A DNA stretch of 64,000 nt from a virus. Taxonomy: Duplodnaviria; Heunggongvirae; Uroviricota; Caudoviricetes. Numbering within the stretch: position 1 is the first letter of the stretch; each line of letters opens with the position of its first letter. The notes under the pieces were generated by a model. The model saw only the letters and a program-made list of their open reading frames with translations, ran no database searches and was not told the origin of the DNA. Where the stretch lies: the IMG/VR virus record IMGVR_UViG_3300025838_000019, positions 102,640 to 166,639 of that record; one strand, 5' to 3'. The position numbers and the translations under genes are program-made. Positions 135-2,845 of this stretch are shown piece by piece.

Positions 135-259
135 ATCATTTGTTTTGCTGATGTAAGCCACGGGGGAAACGTCAACCCCGAGTAACTGCGTACATAAACG
201 GTAGTGTGGCCACCAATTCCGTTGAGCGTAGCAAATAGTGCGTCAGCAAAACAAATGAT
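135..259 (+). ncRNA. Stem-closed spacer module Z: perfect 17-bp terminal stem enclosing ~91 nt
   Basis: ATCATTTGTTTTGCTGA (135-151) is the exact reverse complement of TCAGCAAAACAAATGAT (243-259); 3' arm carries the recurring CAGCAAAACAAA motif; tRNA-Lys begins 3 nt downstream. Confidence 0.4.
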
Positions 260-261
260 AT

Positions 262-336
262 GGGGGTATAACTTAACGGCTAAAGTAGCTGGCTTTTAAC
301 CAGCAAATCAGAGTTCGATTCTCTGTGCCCCTACCA
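262..336 (+). tRNA. tRNA-Lys (anticodon TTT)
   Basis: Cloverleaf: acceptor GGGGGTA/TGCCCCT (with GU pairs), anticodon stem GCTGG/CCAGC, loop CTTTTAA, T-arm AGAGTTCGATTCTCT, CCA encoded; 75 nt. Confidence 0.85.
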
Positions 337-345
337 AAAAGTTAT

Positions 346-431
346 GGAGACATGGCAGAGCGGTTGATTGCACCAGACTGTAAATCTGGCCCCTAAAAAG
401 CACGGTGGTTCGAATCCATCTGTCTCCACCA
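346..431 (+). tRNA. tRNA-Tyr (anticodon GTA), long variable arm
   Basis: Acceptor GGAGACA/TGTCTCC, anticodon arm CCAGA-CTGTAAA-TCTGG, long variable arm, T-loop GGTTCGAATCC, CCA encoded; 86 nt. Confidence 0.85.
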
Positions 432-436
432 AATTC

Positions 437-511
437 GCCCCGTTAATATAACGGCTATTATGCCCGCCTGTCCAGCGGAGAACAGGAGTTCGACTCTCCT
501 ACGGGGCGCCA
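437..511 (+). tRNA. tRNA-Asp (anticodon GTC)
   Basis: Acceptor GCCCCGT/ACGGGGC, loop CTGTCCA, T-arm AGGAGTTCGACTCTCCT, discriminator G, CCA encoded. Confidence 0.8.
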
Positions 512-518
512 GTTTTAT

Positions 519-593
519 TCCACAGTAGCACAGCGGTAGTGCAGGTGACTGTTAATCACTTGGTCGTAGGTTCGATCCCTGCCTGTGGAGCCA
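519..593 (+). tRNA. tRNA-Asn (anticodon GTT)
   Basis: Acceptor TCCACAG/CTGTGGA, anticodon arm GGTGA-CTGTTAA-TCACT, T-loop GGTTCGATCC, CCA encoded. Confidence 0.85.
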
Positions 594-598
594 TTTTT

Positions 599-652
599 AG
601 GATACTTGCAGCAAGCAAAAAACTTTTTATTGGAAAAAAGAAAAGGTATCCT
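599..652 (+). ncRNA. Stem-closed spacer module A (AGG-N4...N4-CCT family)
   Basis: AGGATAC (599-605) pairs with GTATCCT (646-652); flanks TTTTT-AGG and CCT-GTTG shared with modules B, C, D; internal GCAGCAAGCAAAA motif. Confidence 0.4.
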
Positions 653-663
653 GTTGATTTTAT

Positions 664-740
664 CCGTGTGTAGCGCAGTCTGGTAGCGCATCTGGTTTGG
701 GACCAGAGGGTCGCAGGTTCGAATCCTGCTACACGGACCA
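664..740 (+). tRNA. tRNA-Pro (anticodon TGG)
   Basis: Acceptor CCGTGTG/TACACGG, D-arm GCGC-AGTCTGGTA-GCGC, anticodon arm TCTGG-TTTGGGA-CCAGA, T-arm GCAGGTTCGAATCCTGC, CCA encoded. Confidence 0.85.
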
Positions 741-792
741 AATGATTTCGCCTTGACTGATGGCGTACAATGAGATAAGTAATCAGTTATAT

Positions 793-867
793 GGGGGCAG
801 CAGTGGGCTGCGGTTCTCCCTTGCAAGGAGAATGTCTAGAAGGATTCGATTTCCTCGGCCTCCACCA
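793..867 (+). tRNA. tRNA-Ala (anticodon TGC), atypical D-arm
   Basis: Anticodon arm TCTCC-CTTGCAA-GGAGA; acceptor with a G3:U70 wobble (Ala identity element); T-arm and CCA in canonical positions; D-arm non-standard and 7:66 mismatched. Confidence 0.6.
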
Positions 868-872
868 TATAA

Positions 873-985
873 AAACATTCTGAGTGACTACAGCGGATAA
901 ACAGTAAACTTGCAAATGTCGACCAATGCAAGAACCTGCCGTGAAGTAGGGTCACCATGAGATTCAAGGACTCGGCAGAGTGTTT
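873..985 (+). ncRNA. Stem-closed spacer module E (AAACATTCT...AGARTGTTT family)
   Basis: AAACATTCTG (873-882) pairs with CAGAGTGTTT (976-985) allowing one GU pair; homologous to module F, sharing an internal GAGATT(C/A)AAG block and the downstream flank TGTTTCTATATGG before the next tRNA. Confidence 0.4.
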
Positions 986-991
986 CTATAT

Positions 992-1067
992 GGTTCAGTA
1001 GCAAAGCGACTAATGCAGCATCTTCATACGGTGCCTATCGTGAGTTTGAGTCTCACCTGAACCACCA
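992..1067 (+). tRNA. tRNA-Met or Ile2 (anticodon CAT), elongator type
   Basis: 76 nt with standard numbering; acceptor GGTTCAG/CTGAACC, anticodon arm GCATC-TTCATAC-GGTGC, T-arm GTGAGTTTGAGTCTCAC, CCA encoded. Confidence 0.8.
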
Positions 1068-1073
1068 AATAAT

Positions 1074-1150
1074 GCGCTCGTAGCACAACTGGAGAGTGTT
1101 CCGTCCTACGAAGTCGTGAGGTGGGGGTTCGAATCCCTCCGAGCGCACCA
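1074..1150 (+). tRNA. tRNA-Arg (anticodon ambiguous, ACG or CCT by alternative loop registers)
   Basis: Acceptor GCGCTCG/CGAGCGC, D-arm and T-arm (GGGGGTTCGAATCCCTC) clear, CCA encoded; anticodon stem imperfect in both registers, both give Arg. Confidence 0.55.
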
Positions 1151-1379: not shown

Positions 1380-1391
1380 TAAAAAAGAAAG

Positions 1392-1883
1392 GTGATTGAT
1401 ATGAAAGATTTTAACATACAAGAAGTAAAAGACTTCATTTTGGCTCAAGGTCAAGACACTAAGATTTATCTTGGTGCAGACTCCGAACGTGTTAGAATTA
1501 ACGGCGTTTGGTACGCTGACTACGCTCTAGCGGTTGTAGTTCATATTGATGGCCGTCATGGTTGTAAAATCTTTGGTTTCGTGGATCGTGAAATCGACTA
1601 CGACCATAAGAAAAGCAAACCTGCAATGCGTTTGATGACCGAAGTATACAAGGTATCAGAATTGTTCCAAGAAATGCAGGACGTGTTGGAAGACCGTCAT
1701 GTAGAAGTTCACTTGGACTTGAACAAGGATGAAAACCATGGTTCTTCTTGTGTTGTTCAACAAGCGATTGGTTATATCAAAGGTACATGTAACATGACAC
1801 CTATGGTTAAGCCAAACGCACCTGCTGCATCATTCTGTGCTGACCGTCTTAAGCGAATTCTAGCAGAACAAGAAGCAGTATAA
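1392..1883 (+). CDS. YkuK/DUF458-like RNase H-fold protein (163 aa)
   Basis: ORF with good RBS inside tRNA array; motifs IYLGADSERV, GVWYADYALAVVVH and HLDLNKDENHGSS match my recollection of the YkuK family (Y.GTDSQ... V.VIV.HR..., HLDIG...). Confidence 0.5.
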   Translation: MIDMKDFNIQEVKDFILAQGQDTKIYLGADSERVRINGVWYADYALAVVVHIDGRHGCKIFGFVDREIDYDHKKSKPAMRLMTEVYKVSELFQEMQDVLEDRHVEVHLDLNKDENHGSSCVVQQAIGYIKGTCNMTPMVKPNAPAASFCADRLKRILAEQEAV

Positions 1884-1914
1884 AAAAATTCAAAGCAATT
1901 AAGTTTGCTTTGGG

Positions 1915-1988
1915 GAGTCATTAGTTTAGTGGCAAAACCACGGGTTGTGATTCCGTTATCACGAGTTCGATTCTCGTATGACTCCCCA
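1915..1988 (+). tRNA. tRNA-His (anticodon GTG) with encoded G-1 at 1914
   Basis: Acceptor GAGTCAT/ATGACTC, discriminator C, extra 5' G at 1914 (His hallmark), anticodon arm ACGGG-TTGTGAT-TCCGT, T-arm ACGAGTTCGATTCTCGT. Confidence 0.85.
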
Positions 1989-2001
1989 AAGTAAATTTTA
2001 T

Positions 2002-2076
2002 GCCTCGTTAACTCAGCGGTAGAGTAACTCTTTTACACGGAGAAGGTCGGCAGTTCGATCCTGTCACGAGGTACCA
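2002..2076 (+). tRNA. tRNA-Val (anticodon TAC)
   Basis: Acceptor GCCTCGT/ACGAGGT, D-arm ACTC-AGCGGTA-GAGT, anticodon loop TTTACAC, T-arm GGCAGTTCGATCCTGTC, CCA encoded. Confidence 0.8.
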
Positions 2077-2080
2077 AGTT

Positions 2081-2255
2081 TTGTAAGTGTAGATGTTGAG
2101 AAAGCATGGCCTCGAAAACCATGTGAGGAGAAGTCCACACGGGATATGGTGCCCGCTCCAAGTATCAACTGTTACTACGTACCTCTAACCAGTCGGCCGC
2201 TTTAAAGAAAATACTGGTAAAATGTTGGGAAATGAAGGAGGTCCCATGCTTACAA
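2081..2255 (+). ncRNA. Stem-closed spacer module G
   Basis: TTGTAAG (2081-2087) is the reverse complement of CTTACAA (2249-2255); fills the Val-Phe spacer; contains AAGGAGGT-N4-ATG mini-ORF near its 3' end. Confidence 0.3.
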
Positions 2256-2264
2256 ATTCAATAT

Positions 2265-2340
2265 GCAACTCTAGCTGATGTGGTCATAGCGGCGGTCTGA
2301 AGAGCCGTTGAAACAGGTTCGATTCCTGTGGGTTGCACCA
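2265..2340 (+). tRNA. tRNA-Phe (anticodon GAA)
   Basis: Acceptor GCAACTC/GGGTTGC, anticodon arm GCGGT-CTGAAGA-GCCGT, T-arm ACAGGTTCGATTCCTGT, CCA encoded; 76 nt. Confidence 0.8.
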
Positions 2341-2346
2341 AGTTTA

Positions 2347-2444
2347 AGGATCGGTTCAGCAAACCAAAACGTACGGTCATGGTGACCAATTTGACTTATA
2401 ATCAAACCTTGGGGGTTCAATTCCCTCTACAAAAAAACGATCCT
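2347..2444 (+). ncRNA. Stem-closed spacer module C with internal tRNA-like module
   Basis: AGGATCG (2347-2353) pairs with CGATCCT (2438-2444); interior has GTTCAGCAAACCAAAA motif, hairpin GGTCA-TGG-TGACC, anticodon-like arm TTTGA-CTTATAA-TCAAA and canonical T-arm GGGGGTTCAATTCCCTC. Confidence 0.45.
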
Positions 2445-2451
2445 GTTATAT

Positions 2452-2528
2452 GCCCTCCTATCCCAATTGGTAGAGGAAGCAGTTTCAAACACTGTGTAGT
2501 CTGAGTTCGAATCTCAGGGTGGGCACCA
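2452..2528 (+). tRNA. Type-I tRNA (short variable loop) with Leu anticodon CAA; isotype uncertain
   Basis: Acceptor GCCCTCC/GGTGGGC (one T-T mismatch), D-loop AATTGGTAG, anticodon arm GCAGT-TTCAAAC-ACTGT, 5-nt variable loop, T-arm CTGAGTTCGAATCTCAG, discriminator A, CCA encoded. Confidence 0.6.
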
Positions 2529-2534
2529 TATACA

Positions 2535-2614
2535 AACATTCTAAACTGGACGCAGGATCGGAGAAGGTTGAAAGTGGGTTAGCTACCACAAGTATGCTGG
2601 AGATTAAGAATGTT
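2535..2614 (+). ncRNA. Stem-closed spacer module F (AAACATTCT family)
   Basis: AAACATTCT (2535-2543) is the exact reverse complement of AGAATGTTT (2607-2615 region); homologous to module E; followed by TCTATATGGGTT and tRNA-Lys(CTT). Confidence 0.4.
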
Positions 2615-2621
2615 TCTATAT

Positions 2622-2696
2622 GGGTTATAAGCTTAAGTGATGAAGCAACCGGCTCTTAACCGGTAGAACAGAGTTTGATTCTCTGATGACCCACCA
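2622..2696 (+). tRNA. tRNA-Lys (anticodon CTT)
   Basis: Acceptor GGGTTAT/ATGACCC, D-arm GCTT-AAGTGATG-AAGC, anticodon arm ACCGG-CTCTTAA-CCGGT, T-arm CAGAGTTTGATTCTCTG, CCA encoded. Confidence 0.85.
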
Positions 2697-2697
2697 A

Positions 2698-2845
2698 TTT
2701 TTGAGCTAGACGTTTGGATTGAGTCCCATGTGCGCTAGGTCCCTAATCTTGAGACTGACACACCAGTAGCAACACAAGGTCGTTAAACTCTCCTATACGA
2801 GACAACCTGATGAGTCCTTGAGAAAGATAGTCAGTCGCTCAAAAA
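2698..2845 (+). ncRNA. Stem-closed spacer module H
   Basis: TTTTTGAGC (2698-2706) is the exact reverse complement of GCTCAAAAA (2837-2845); fills the Lys(CTT)-Thr(GGT) spacer. Confidence 0.35.

Follow-up and report, generated by a model that had tools for sequence, protein, structure and literature searches.

The long spacers in the tRNA array of an uncultivated T4-like phage raise the question of whether they merely separate tRNA genes or encode RNAs of their own. The window, meaning the whole stretch of 64,000 nucleotides that was analysed, comes from a distant T4-like myovirus whose DNA polymerase shares 49% identity with cyanomyophage enzymes. The original prediction was that almost every long spacer is closed by a terminal stem; this held except for spacer 2928-3098, which has none, and all five stems described (modules Z, E, F, G, and H) were located. 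The modules and their closing stems are as follows.

1-134, + strand: 3' part of a further stem-closed module, truncated by the window start, with the 3' strand of its closing helix at about 111-134.
134-260, + strand: module Z, a 125-nt three-way-junction RNA with P1, a P2 hairpin, and a P3-P4 arm; closing stem ATCATTTGTTTTGCTGA (135-151) with TCAGCAAAACAAATGAT (243-259).
873-985, + strand: module E, 113 nt, with nested helices and an apical loop; 10-bp closing helix AAACATTCTG (873-882) with CAGAGTGTTT (976-985), one G-U pair included.
2080-2256, + strand: module G, about 177 nt, with P1, P2, a variable arm, a P5 hairpin, a P6 hairpin, and a pseudoknot; closing stem TTTGTAAG (2080-2087) with CTTACAAA (2249-2256).
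2534-2615, + strand: module F, with a small core and a loop palindrome UAGCUA (2580-2585); closing helix AAACATTCT (2534-2542) with AGAATGTTT (2607-2615).
2698-2845, + strand: module H, a 148-nt multi-helix RNA with P1 to P6; closing stem P1 TTTTTGAGC (2698-2706) with GCTCAAAAA (2837-2845).

Comparison of the terminal stems with 2000 shuffles per spacer within the window gave p=0.0035 for G, p=0 for F, and p=0.0005 for H, while for the AGG/CCT spacers p was about 0.02-0.06. Among 288 spacer families from related arrays, 35% of the spacers of 70-120 nt had a terminal stem 9 bp long or longer, against 3% after shuffling. RNAfold singled out Z only (z-score -6.2); E, F, G, and H had unremarkable z-scores and fold no better than shuffles. 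The main case for the stems is comparative.

Terminal complementarity was conserved in relatives. Across related uncultivated phage contigs, compensatory changes in P1 were strong for Z, G, E, and H and weak for F; the alignments were built from related phages, so some of the changes counted are shared by descent. Covariation over the whole structures was abundant, with compensatory changes at 22 of 42 pairs in Z (alignment A8, 53 sequences), 25 of 39 in G (A10, 33 sequences), 30 of 39 in H (A11, 52 sequences), and 7 of 24 in E (9 unique homologues), counts that far exceed those of the shuffled and slid controls. This covariation, which reaches beyond the terminal stems into the interiors of Z, G, H, and E, supports the predicted alternation of tRNA and stem-closed domain beyond what tRNA genes explain.

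The Z stem extends to 18 Watson-Crick pairs (134-151/243-260) and, with four more (UGUA/UGCG), to a P1 of 22 bp, in which 14 of the 22 pairs showed compensatory changes and 98.8% were paired across the 53 sequences. Over the whole Z alignment 97.2% of cells were paired, compared with 31-50% when the partners were slid, and the junction blocks GUAAGCC, GUAACU, and UAGCA..AGUGC were invariant. The Z covariance model scored 151 bits on the + strand and 32 bits on the - strand, and the module was found in 106 IMG/VR stretches. In most relatives the CCA end of tRNA-Glu forms part of the 22-bp helix. A full copy of the truncated module at 1-134 (reverse complement of the relative L087, 11254-11468) is closed by CCAUACUAAAACACAUUGGG/CCCUAAUGUGUUUUAGUAUGG, and this helix also takes in the tRNA-Glu CCA end.

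Module G was found in 45 IMG/VR stretches. Six of the eight P1 pairs covaried (100% paired, 33 sequences), 92.4% of the whole alignment was paired, and the pseudoknot between CCUC (2182-2185) and GAGG (2238-2241) was 99% paired with one covarying pair. Module H occurred in at least 118 IMG/VR stretches, with 104 unique sequences among the matches listed. Compensatory changes were found at seven of its nine P1 pairs, and 85.8% of the alignment was paired, against 38-46% when slid. Its junction blocks UAGACG, UGAGUCC, and CGAGACAA were invariant in the 52 diverse sequences, and UGACA, AAACU, and AUAG were near-invariant.

In the E terminal stem, the automatic count found a double-sided change at one pair and a one-sided change at two others. 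Two homologues carry full alternatives of the stem (AAACUCUCUG/CAGAGAGUUU and UGCUCUUUG/CAAAGAGCA), which were read by eye, both rows being misaligned at the 3' end. F had three compensatory pairs overall, one of them in the terminal stem, from only four unique homologues. The two spacers had been proposed as homologous to each other. Their closing stem and flanks are indeed common, but on the profile comparison their cores are not homologous: neither profile matched the other family in nhmmer at E<=1, and the supposed shared internal block GAGATTNAAG was not conserved within the F family. The stem type AAAACAYAUU...AGUGUGUUUCUAU, with its conserved flanks, encloses at least 49 unrelated cores (75 unique spacers), E and F included, and in one relative (L004) E occupies the position held by F in the window.

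Searches of Rfam 15 (E up to 10) gave no match for the modules, only tRNA reaching the gathering score; neither ARAGORN nor the Rfam tRNA model recognised any of the five modules; and blastn of Z and G, the two tested, against 50,697 cultured-phage genomes gave no match. On this comparative evidence Z, G, H, and E are four distinct, previously undescribed structured RNA families. They recur in hundreds of related contigs, almost always on the tRNA strand, within tRNA arrays, and beside varying tRNAs; of 195 pattern-derived loci 5 kb or longer, 190 held five or more tRNAs (median 19-20). Since the modules recur beside different tRNA pairs, they are autonomous RNA units. Many G-U pairs are conserved, which on the other strand would give A-C. 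Between 135 and 2845 there was one promoter-like match only, a weak one (107-134, second hexamer TATGGT), and no + strand terminator except the hairpin 2375-2387 inside an AGG/CCT module. The best promoter matches fell at 4010-4038 and 4229-4257; in a relative, promoters of the form TTGACA-N17-GATACAAT are located upstream.

It is quite likely that Z, G, H, and E, and probably F, are independently folding small non-coding RNA genes within the tRNA operon, whose products are released and, for Z, G, and E, dimerise. Conservation, structure, strand, genomic context, and palindrome covariation are demonstrated. The modules would be transcribed together with the flanking tRNAs from upstream sigma-70-type promoters, and each would fold as its own domain, the terminal stem being its closing helix P1. 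The linkers to the neighbouring tRNAs are 1-8 nt long. The tRNA-maturing enzymes would then free the module: RNase P would cleave 1-8 nt 3' of it, where the next tRNA begins, an endonuclease would cleave the 1-5-nt linker behind the upstream CCA, and exonucleases would trim to P1, which would shield both ends. Phage T4 RNA C and RNA D are released from the T4 tRNA cluster by this route. The phages are uncultivated, so we infer excision and stability, and likewise co-transcription, dimerisation, and any downstream function. Our best guess at the latter is a stable RNA or ribonucleoprotein scaffold acting on tRNA or RNA metabolism during infection.

Dimerisation is suggested by palindromic loops in three of the modules; H has no palindromic loop.

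206-213, + strand: Z apical-loop palindrome GUGGCCAC, a predicted symmetric kissing-loop (dimerisation) site.
918-923, + strand: E apical-loop palindrome GUCGAC.
2194-2199, + strand: G P5-loop palindrome CGGCCG, a predicted kissing-loop site.

In 75 of 76 unique Z sequences the same loop position carried a perfect palindrome of 6 nt or more, in at least 20 variants, and the central tetramer was palindromic in 53 of 53. The palindrome pair 2 nt apart covaried (UA 21, GC 18, AU 13), the loop-loop duplex was calculated at -16.5 kcal/mol, and in 16 pairs of Z copies the palindrome differed although the sequence outside the loop was 95% identical or more. The G P5 loop read CGGCCG, CCGCGG, CUGCAG, UCCGGA, GCCGGC, CCCGGG, or GGCGCC in all 30 parsed sequences, and all three of its "pairs" covaried, the adjacent one too. 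In E the palindrome alternates between GUCGAC and GCCGGC, a single double change. Palindromes were not enriched across the array spacers generally (551 hexamers observed, 675 in shuffles), and the argument for dimers therefore rests on position-specific covariation in three families. Because covarying "pairs" that are adjacent or nearly so are impossible within one chain, the changes are read as intermolecular. They suggest pairing between two copies of the same RNA, and the freed Z, G, and E would most likely form symmetric homodimers through kissing apical loops.

The array has a candidate protein partner for these RNAs.

4585-6024, + strand: gene for a Ro60-fold protein at the 3' end of the array, with Pfam DUF2828 and DUF7788/vWA.

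The AF2 model of this product (pLDDT 90) had 9kop (phage Ro60), 1yvr (Ro60), and 2nvo (Rsr) as its top three full-length Foldseek PDB matches (E from 2e-9 to 4e-8), and on this model the protein is a possible partner of the modules. The Ro60 fold at the array end therefore makes a Y-RNA-like role possible, with slight support: the Ro60-fold ring would be bound through the closing helix or a bulge next to it, and the remainder of the module would tether an effector, for example host PNPase. Such a role fits with small RNA genes in the operon and would specify their function, though we consider it doubtful. All five modules share the strand of the gene and lie 1.7-4.4 kb upstream of it; lengths of 80-130 nt, paired 5' and 3' ends, and a same-strand position within about 4 kb of Ro60 characterise the known Y RNAs (PMC4201824); a phage Ro60 binds two Y-like RNAs encoded upstream and forms higher-order and dimeric RNPs (PMC12135203); and in Citrobacter phage Michonne a DUF2828 gene likewise adjoins the tRNA array. 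However, the GNCGAA/CGAA motif is missing from Z, E, and F, occurs in some variants only of G, and is approximate in H (GACGAU/GACGUU). The modules lack a tRNA-like T or D arm (UUGAGUCC of H belongs to P2/P3 by covariation), and the Rfam result at E<=10 also tells against Y RNAs. Among pattern-derived loci 10 kb or longer, only about 10% of those with Z or H, and 44% of those with G, contained a Ro-like gene, and the AGG/CCT modules, with a tRNA-like core (26-bit tRNA match at 2371-2431), are better Y-RNA candidates.

An unlikely reading is that the spacers are passive processing signals or insulators, in which only the stem and AU-rich flanks matter (as RNase III or RNase E signals or folding insulators) and the interior is filler. 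A helix of 22 bp, as in Z, is long enough for RNase III, and this reading gains from the tRNA-Glu CCA end lying inside that helix and from the one stem type that surrounds so many unrelated cores. At 8-10 bp, however, the stems of G, H, E, and F are too short for RNase III. Conservation of the interior is strong in Z, G, H, and E, where there are unpaired blocks that do not vary, internal helices that covary, and a pseudoknot. The modules also swap tRNA neighbours yet retain their interior.

Catalytic or ligand-sensing RNAs, for instance riboswitch-like sensors or novel ribozymes whose self-cleavage would cut the tRNA precursor, are decidedly improbable. H and G would be the main candidates, given the invariance of their multi-junction cores, H through its blocks and G through its conserved pseudoknot, and self-cleaving ribozymes are common in phage genomes. 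Against this, no Rfam ribozyme or riboswitch family matched, no downstream gene is placed for regulation, and the CUGAUGA-like string in H (2808-2814), considered as a ribozyme motif, was rejected, being not conserved and one strand of the covarying helix P5. Least probable are DNA-level elements, that is, MITE-like or cassette-like mobile DNA ends or decayed tRNA genes: the modules do sit at differing inter-tRNA positions across phages, as E does in L004, and conserved flanks could promote cassette exchange, but the Z stem sequence has no second copy within the 64-kb window, no target-site duplications were seen, the structure is strand-specific with G-U pairs, the compensatory changes are the pattern of RNA helices and not of transposase-binding ends, and the tRNA searches were blank in all five modules.

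For small RNA genes in a tRNA operon, the nearest known parallel is the pair RNA C and RNA D of phage T4 (species 1 and 2 RNAs, rnaC/rnaD), whose role has been unknown for decades (PMC3014915). They are annotated as small (119-139 nt), stable, structured RNAs and, like the modules, lie head-to-tail with tRNA genes on the tRNA strand. The Z covariance model did not match rnaC or rnaD in the T4 region, so the parallel is by analogy only. Unlike in T4, where the two RNAs are at the cluster end, at least five modules and at least five AGG/CCT modules are interleaved with tRNAs here, and three modules have covarying palindromic loops. The Y RNAs bound by Ro60/Rsr (YrlA, Yrn1, and phiLo Yrl1/Yrl2) share the size of about 80-130 nt, the paired ends, and the position upstream of a Ro60-fold gene; their Ro-binding motif and tRNA-like T/D arms are missing or approximate in Z, E, F, G, and H, and co-occurrence with a Ro-like gene is loose here.

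The HIV-1 DIS, one of several palindromic kissing-loop dimerisation hairpins, is a GC-rich, purine-flanked hairpin-loop palindrome of 6-8 nt that varies between related lineages (review PMC7357161). The likeness lies in this kind of loop palindrome and in the Z copies that are nearly identical elsewhere and differ in the palindrome; the DIS is a viral genome packaging signal, whereas the modules are small phage RNAs in a tRNA operon with larger loops (12-19 nt). OLE, GOLLD, and ROOL are "ornate" RNAs that assemble into homo-oligomers from RNA only. GOLLD and ROOL come from phages or prophages and often lie beside tRNA islands, and the same switching-palindrome argument was made for the intermolecular kissing loops OLE L9.3, where GGCC changes to GAUC or AGCU, and GOLLD L21a (PMC12286853). 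As in OLE and GOLLD, the palindromes of Z, G, and E switch sequence and remain palindromic. OLE, GOLLD, and ROOL are about 500-800 nt or more, and their Rfam models had no match here; the modules, at 80-180 nt, differ further in that several different ones stand along one tRNA operon, and their predicted assembly is a simple dimer and not a cage.

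The tRNA region of this uncultivated T4-like myovirus occupied positions 1-6330, and the phage DNA polymerase showed 49% identity to cyanomyophage polymerases. ARAGORN predicted 21 tRNAs on the plus strand of window positions 1-6330. No DNA-level counterpart of the array was found in cultured phages, and megablast of 1-4600 produced a single tRNA-Pro match. In the usual annotation of phage tRNA clusters, what separates the tRNAs is treated as junk. In this array the gaps hold four or more RNA families, conserved and complex, that are present in hundreds of freshwater viral contigs: the stem-closed spacers of the operon represent small structured RNAs of new families, three of which bear a homodimerisation signature.

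Features of the tRNA region (window coordinates)
1-134: truncated module crossing the window start, about 215 nt in full, of which the 3' remainder falls in the window
134-260, plus strand: stem-closed spacer, module Z
594-663, 1230-1305, 2341-2451, 4290-4395 and 4396-4570: AGG/CCT-closed modules, a separate family of stem-closed spacers
754-788: small hairpin 3' of tRNA-Pro (UGACUGAU...AUCAGUUA, 8 bp, 18-nt loop), kept in 17 related loci
About 792-867: element resembling tRNA-Ala(UGC), its D arm unusual and its T stem weakened, called by neither ARAGORN nor Rfam
873-985, plus strand: stem-closed spacer, module E
1392-1883: RNase H-like ORF (PF04308) within the array
2080-2256, plus strand: stem-closed spacer, module G
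2534-2615, plus strand: stem-closed spacer, module F
2619-2696: extra tRNA missed by ARAGORN (Rfam 53 bits at 2622-2693), anticodon loop CUCUUAA, i.e. CUU
2698-2845, plus strand: stem-closed spacer, module H
3312-3929: metallophosphoesterase (calcineurin-like) ORF within the array
4010-4038 and 4229-4257: strong sigma-70-like promoters (TTGCCA-17-TATAAT; TTGACT-17-TACAAT with extended -10)
4585-6024: gene of the DUF2828+DUF7788/vWA protein (479 aa) within the array
6168-6250: spacer between tRNA-Gly(UCC) and tRNA-Met with a 7-bp closing stem GCGGCAA (p=0.016 vs shuffles)

The element at 792-867, perhaps an atypical tRNA or one in decay, was 88% identical to a called tRNA-Ala of the related locus L004 (3384-3458). 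The two ORFs at 1392-1883 and 3312-3929 hint at a theme of RNA repair or processing; the phosphoesterase also showed a weak resemblance to the ligase-associated PdeM family. Between the modules, the plus strand contained a single weak promoter-like match and no terminators. The predicted sigma-70-like promoters divide the array into several transcription units, and promoters of the form TTGACA-N17-GATACAAT were located at about 10197, 11029 and 11117 on the reverse complement of the related locus L087.

All the terminal stems named in the original prediction were present at their coordinates, and those of G, F and H were improbable against shuffles of their own spacers (p = 0.0035, 0 and 0.0005, respectively). 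The further claim that almost every long spacer is enclosed by such a stem held for nearly all of them, the exception being the long, non-coding spacer 2928-3098, which had no terminal stem. This spacer was partially conserved in three related loci (L004, L014 and L007), and a 60-aa minus-strand ORF over it is probably spurious. The Z stem, first described as 17 bp, lengthened to a helix of 22 bp; the duplexes of G, H, E and F were 8-10 bp long. An RNase III processing stem would call for some 20 bp or more of near-perfect duplex. The full copy of the truncated module at 1-134 was found in L087 (reverse complement 11254-11468), where its closing helix of about 20 bp takes in the CCA terminus of the tRNA-Glu that precedes it. 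Linkers between module and tRNA measured 1-8 nt. In related arrays, 35% of 111 families of spacers of 70-120 nt were closed by a stem of 9 bp or more, compared with 3% after shuffling. In RNA folding, Z alone among the modules was thermodynamically striking (z = -6.2). Covariation confirmed the closing helices by compensatory changes in the alignments of Z, G, H and E.

Covariation in the module alignments
Z: 53 sequences (alignment A8); compensatory changes at 22 of 42 pairs; 97.2% of cells paired; 31-50% with slid partners
G: 33 sequences (A10); compensatory changes at 25 of 39 pairs; 92.4% of cells paired; 36-50% with slid partners
H: 52 sequences (A11); compensatory changes at 30 of 39 pairs; 85.8% of cells paired; 38-46% with slid partners
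E: 9 sequences (A6); compensatory changes at 7 of 24 pairs, mainly internal

Module Z formed a three-way junction with invariant junction strands (GUAAGCC, GUAACU and UAGCA..AGUGC), and its closing helix covaried at 14 of the 22 pairs. The closing helix of G was 100% paired with covariation at 6 of 8 pairs; five more helices and a pseudoknot, CCUC/GAGG, completed the structure, the latter being 99% paired and changing from U-A to C-G at one pair in two sequences. In several relatives (L030 2683-2870, L226 1514-1690) the variable arm of G bore a T-loop-like GGUUCGAGUCC hairpin; the window copy had only GAAGUCC. Module H consisted of eight helices with invariant blocks UAGACG, UGAGUCC and CGAGACAA and near-invariant blocks UGACA, AAACU and AUAG, and its closing helix alternated between GAG/CUC, GGG/CCC and AAG/CUU. 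The terminal stem of E occurred in alternative complementary versions in two homologues (by eye), and F had four unique homologues in all. Many conserved G-U pairs, together with the Z covariance model, which scored 151 bits on the plus strand and 32 bits on the minus strand, place the structures on the tRNA strand.

Two readings of motifs in H were rejected: the hammerhead-like string CUGAUGAG was not conserved and is one strand of a covarying helix, and the T-loop or tRNA-mimic reading of GGUUUGAGUCCC fails in the 52 sequences, in which GAG pairs with CUY and the next CC opens helix P3. With regard to MITEs, no target-site duplications were seen, the Z stem was single-copy in the window and the structure was strand-specific.

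Conserved-motif patterns detected Z in 106, E in 13, G in 45 and H in at least 118 IMG/VR stretches. Among the loci of at least 5 kb found by RNA patterns alone, 190 of 195 carried five or more tRNAs, with a median of 19-20. One and the same module occurred between many different tRNA pairs, and the modules therefore appear to be shuffled like genes within arrays and are not spacers tied to their neighbours. Bacterial hosts or prophages were also considered and rejected: among 185,579 species genomes of bacteria and archaea, the Z pattern had a single occurrence, in a MAG contig of 538 bp. Z and G had no blastn matches among 50,697 cultured-phage genomes. Three cmscan runs up to E=10 returned tRNAs and noise only, with no match of a module to any Rfam family, and an Rfam identity was rejected.

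The signature of homodimerisation was clearest in Z, where the apical loop of the P4 arm held a perfect palindrome of 6-10 nt in 75 of 76 unique sequences. At least 20 versions were found, including GUGGCCAC (the window copy), GCUGCAGC, CCAGCUGG, CUAGCUAG, GCGGCCGC, CCGGCCGG, UCUAGA and UUGCAA. The central tetramer was palindromic in 53/53 aligned sequences (GGCC 18, UGCA 17, AGCU 13, CUAG 4, UCGA 1), and the 'pair' around only two nucleotides covaried (UA 21, GC 18, AU 13), a pairing that is impossible within one chain. Sixteen pairs of Z copies that were at least 95% identical outside the loop carried differing palindromes. In G, directly 3' of the P5 stem, one of CGGCCG, CCGCGG, CUGCAG, UCCGGA, GCCGGC, CCCGGG or GGCGCC was present in 30/30 parsed sequences, and the loop of E showed a single palindrome switch, GUCGAC to or from GCCGGC. 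Predicted loop-loop duplexes had energies of -16.5 kcal/mol for Z, -11.5 for G and -9.1 for E; H was without a palindromic loop. A general excess of palindromes across the array spacers was rejected, 551 hexamers being observed against 675 +/- 25 in dinucleotide shuffles, and about one palindrome is expected by chance per 60-nt core. Since palindromes are not enriched in the spacers overall, the dimer claim is confined to the aligned positions. The same argument from covarying palindromes was made for the intermolecular kissing loops OLE L9.3 and GOLLD L21a (Kretsch et al., PMC12286853). At these positions, Z, G and E carry what the alignments mark as a putative homodimerisation signature.

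A tentative extension, to which we give somewhat less than even chances, is that in this group of phages the tRNA operon carries a toolkit of small RNAs, each self-associating via a private, rapidly diversifying palindromic kissing loop. If so, Z, G and E would be the first small (about 110-180 nt) natural RNA-only homo-oligomers, a class so far known solely from the giant GOLLD, ROOL and OLE. Before processing, polycistronic transcripts, each with several self-pairing loops, could become cross-linked to one another as an assembly for tRNA processing, and the fast turnover of palindromes among near-identical Z copies would be a specificity code against heterodimers with the RNAs of co-infecting relatives.

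Modules E and F had been described as homologous to each other. Their closing helix and flanks (CCAUAUAAAAACAUUCU...AGAAUGUUUCUAUAUGG) were indeed common to both, but their cores were unrelated: the nhmmer profile of each family had no match in the other, and the supposedly shared internal block GAGATTNAAG was not conserved within F. Their helix type, AAAACAYAUU...AGUGUGUUUCUAU with conserved AU-rich flanks, enclosed at least 49 unrelated cores in 75 unique spacers of related arrays (for example at L024 3174, L012 6946 and L087 reverse complement 10341-10401). In this class, the stem and flanks may serve in common as a signal for processing, or as an 'adaptor' by which modules are swapped through recombination.

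The AlphaFold model of the protein encoded at 4585-6024, built on a diverse alignment, had a pLDDT of 90 (a shallow-alignment AF2 model, with pLDDT 55, was unusable). Its best three full-length Foldseek matches in the PDB were the Thermus-phage Ro60 (9kop), Xenopus Ro60 (1yvr) and Deinococcus Rsr (2nvo), with E-values of 2e-9 to 4e-8, and the DUF2828+DUF7788/vWA protein is thus predicted to have the Ro60 fold (TROVE ring + vWA). At sequence level, phmmer and hmmsearch gave no PDB match linking it to Ro60, and there was no TROVE Pfam match. With the DUF2828 protein as query, 80 IMG/VR loci were recovered; GenBank phage records with a homologue numbered 702 (KVP40, FelixO1-like, Listeria, Staphylococcus and mycobacteriophages). 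Homologues in GenBank phages are labelled 'RNA-binding' or 'Ro-like', and in Citrobacter phage Michonne the gene directly adjoins a 25-tRNA array.

Y RNAs are 80-130 nt long, have paired ends and are encoded near Ro60 (PMC4201824), and a phage Ro60 binds two Y-like RNAs (PMC12135203). Z, G, H, E and F could accordingly be Y-RNA-like partners of the Ro60-fold protein, a reading that we consider unlikely. The distance from the modules to the gene at 4585-6024, downstream on the same strand, is 1.7-4.4 kb (Y RNA criterion: within about 4 kb), their ends are paired in closing helices confirmed by covariation, and their size fits, although G, at 177 nt, and H, at 148 nt, exceed the typical length. 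However, the Ro-binding motif GNCGAA(N0-1)G / CGAA was not found near the 5' end of Z, E or F; some variants of G alone had GUCGAA, inside a hairpin loop, and the invariant UAGACG of H was followed by AU or UU, not AA. Neither tRNA-like T and D arms nor a tRNA or other Rfam match at E<=10 was found in the modules, the UUGAGUCC of H being taken up in the helices P2/P3. In loci of at least 10 kb the Ro-like gene was present in only about 10% for Z and for H, and in 44% for G. Because the motif and arms are missing and the co-occurrence is loose, Y-RNA-like partnership is kept as a possibility and not as the main reading.

The AGG/CCT modules fit the Y-RNA (YrlA-like) description better than Z, E, F, G and H. 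The AGG/CCT module 2341-2451 contained a tRNA-like core at 2371-2431 (Rfam tRNA 26 bits, below the gathering score). The 13-mer UCAGCAAAACAAA occurred without change both in the 3' strand of the Z closing helix (243-255) and inside an AGG/CCT module, towards its 5' end (4405-4417), with copies carrying one or two mismatches in two others (2356-2368 and 4301-4313). An antisense relation between the two families was not upheld, as the Z stem covaries freely in relatives and UCAGCAAAACAAA is therefore not obligatory. A module of about 125 nt with a perfect 21-bp closing stem was found in Synechococcus phage BUCT-ZZ01 (ON615601; related locus L197, 2658-2782), a cultured freshwater cyanophage; it lies just upstream of an ARAGORN-predicted permuted tmRNA and 4.2 kb upstream of the DUF2828 gene of that phage, and the record lists it as a hypothetical CDS. 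BUCT-ZZ01 could be used for experiments. In the window, the Ro60-fold gene next to the modules raises a second hypothesis, that of Y-RNA-like ribonucleoproteins in T4-like phages.

For the new small RNA families themselves, the modules would be co-transcribed with the tRNAs. RNase P, acting at the tRNA that follows, would set them free together with endonucleases and exonucleases of the 3' end. By analogy with T4 RNA C and RNA D, the closing helix would guard the module ends (PMC3014915), and Z, G and E would then dimerise through their loops. Our best guess is that the modules act as a scaffold in the metabolism of RNA or tRNA, whether or not the Ro60-fold protein takes part.

The modules resemble known kinds of RNA, namely the stable RNAs other than tRNAs that phage tRNA clusters encode, and the RNA-only oligomers found close to tRNA islands. 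Like T4 RNA C and D, the modules lie inside a phage tRNA cluster, on the tRNA strand and without a promoter or terminator of their own. A homology of Z to T4 rnaC, suggested by the shared string GUAAGCC..GAGUA, was rejected, since the Z covariance model (R1), run on the T4 region with filters off, gave no matches on rnaC/rnaD. The modules reopen the 50-year-old question of the role of T4 RNA C and D, and supply many more sequences and clear structural models. Functional RNA oligomers are deemed rare in nature (PMC7357161). GOLLD, ROOL and OLE exceed 500 nt, whereas the modules measure 80-180 nt and match no Rfam model at E<=10; the likeness lies in the covarying palindromic loop of Z, G and, by its single switch, E. 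If small natural RNAs also work as homodimers, this would extend what cryo-EM has recently revealed for GOLLD, ROOL and OLE.
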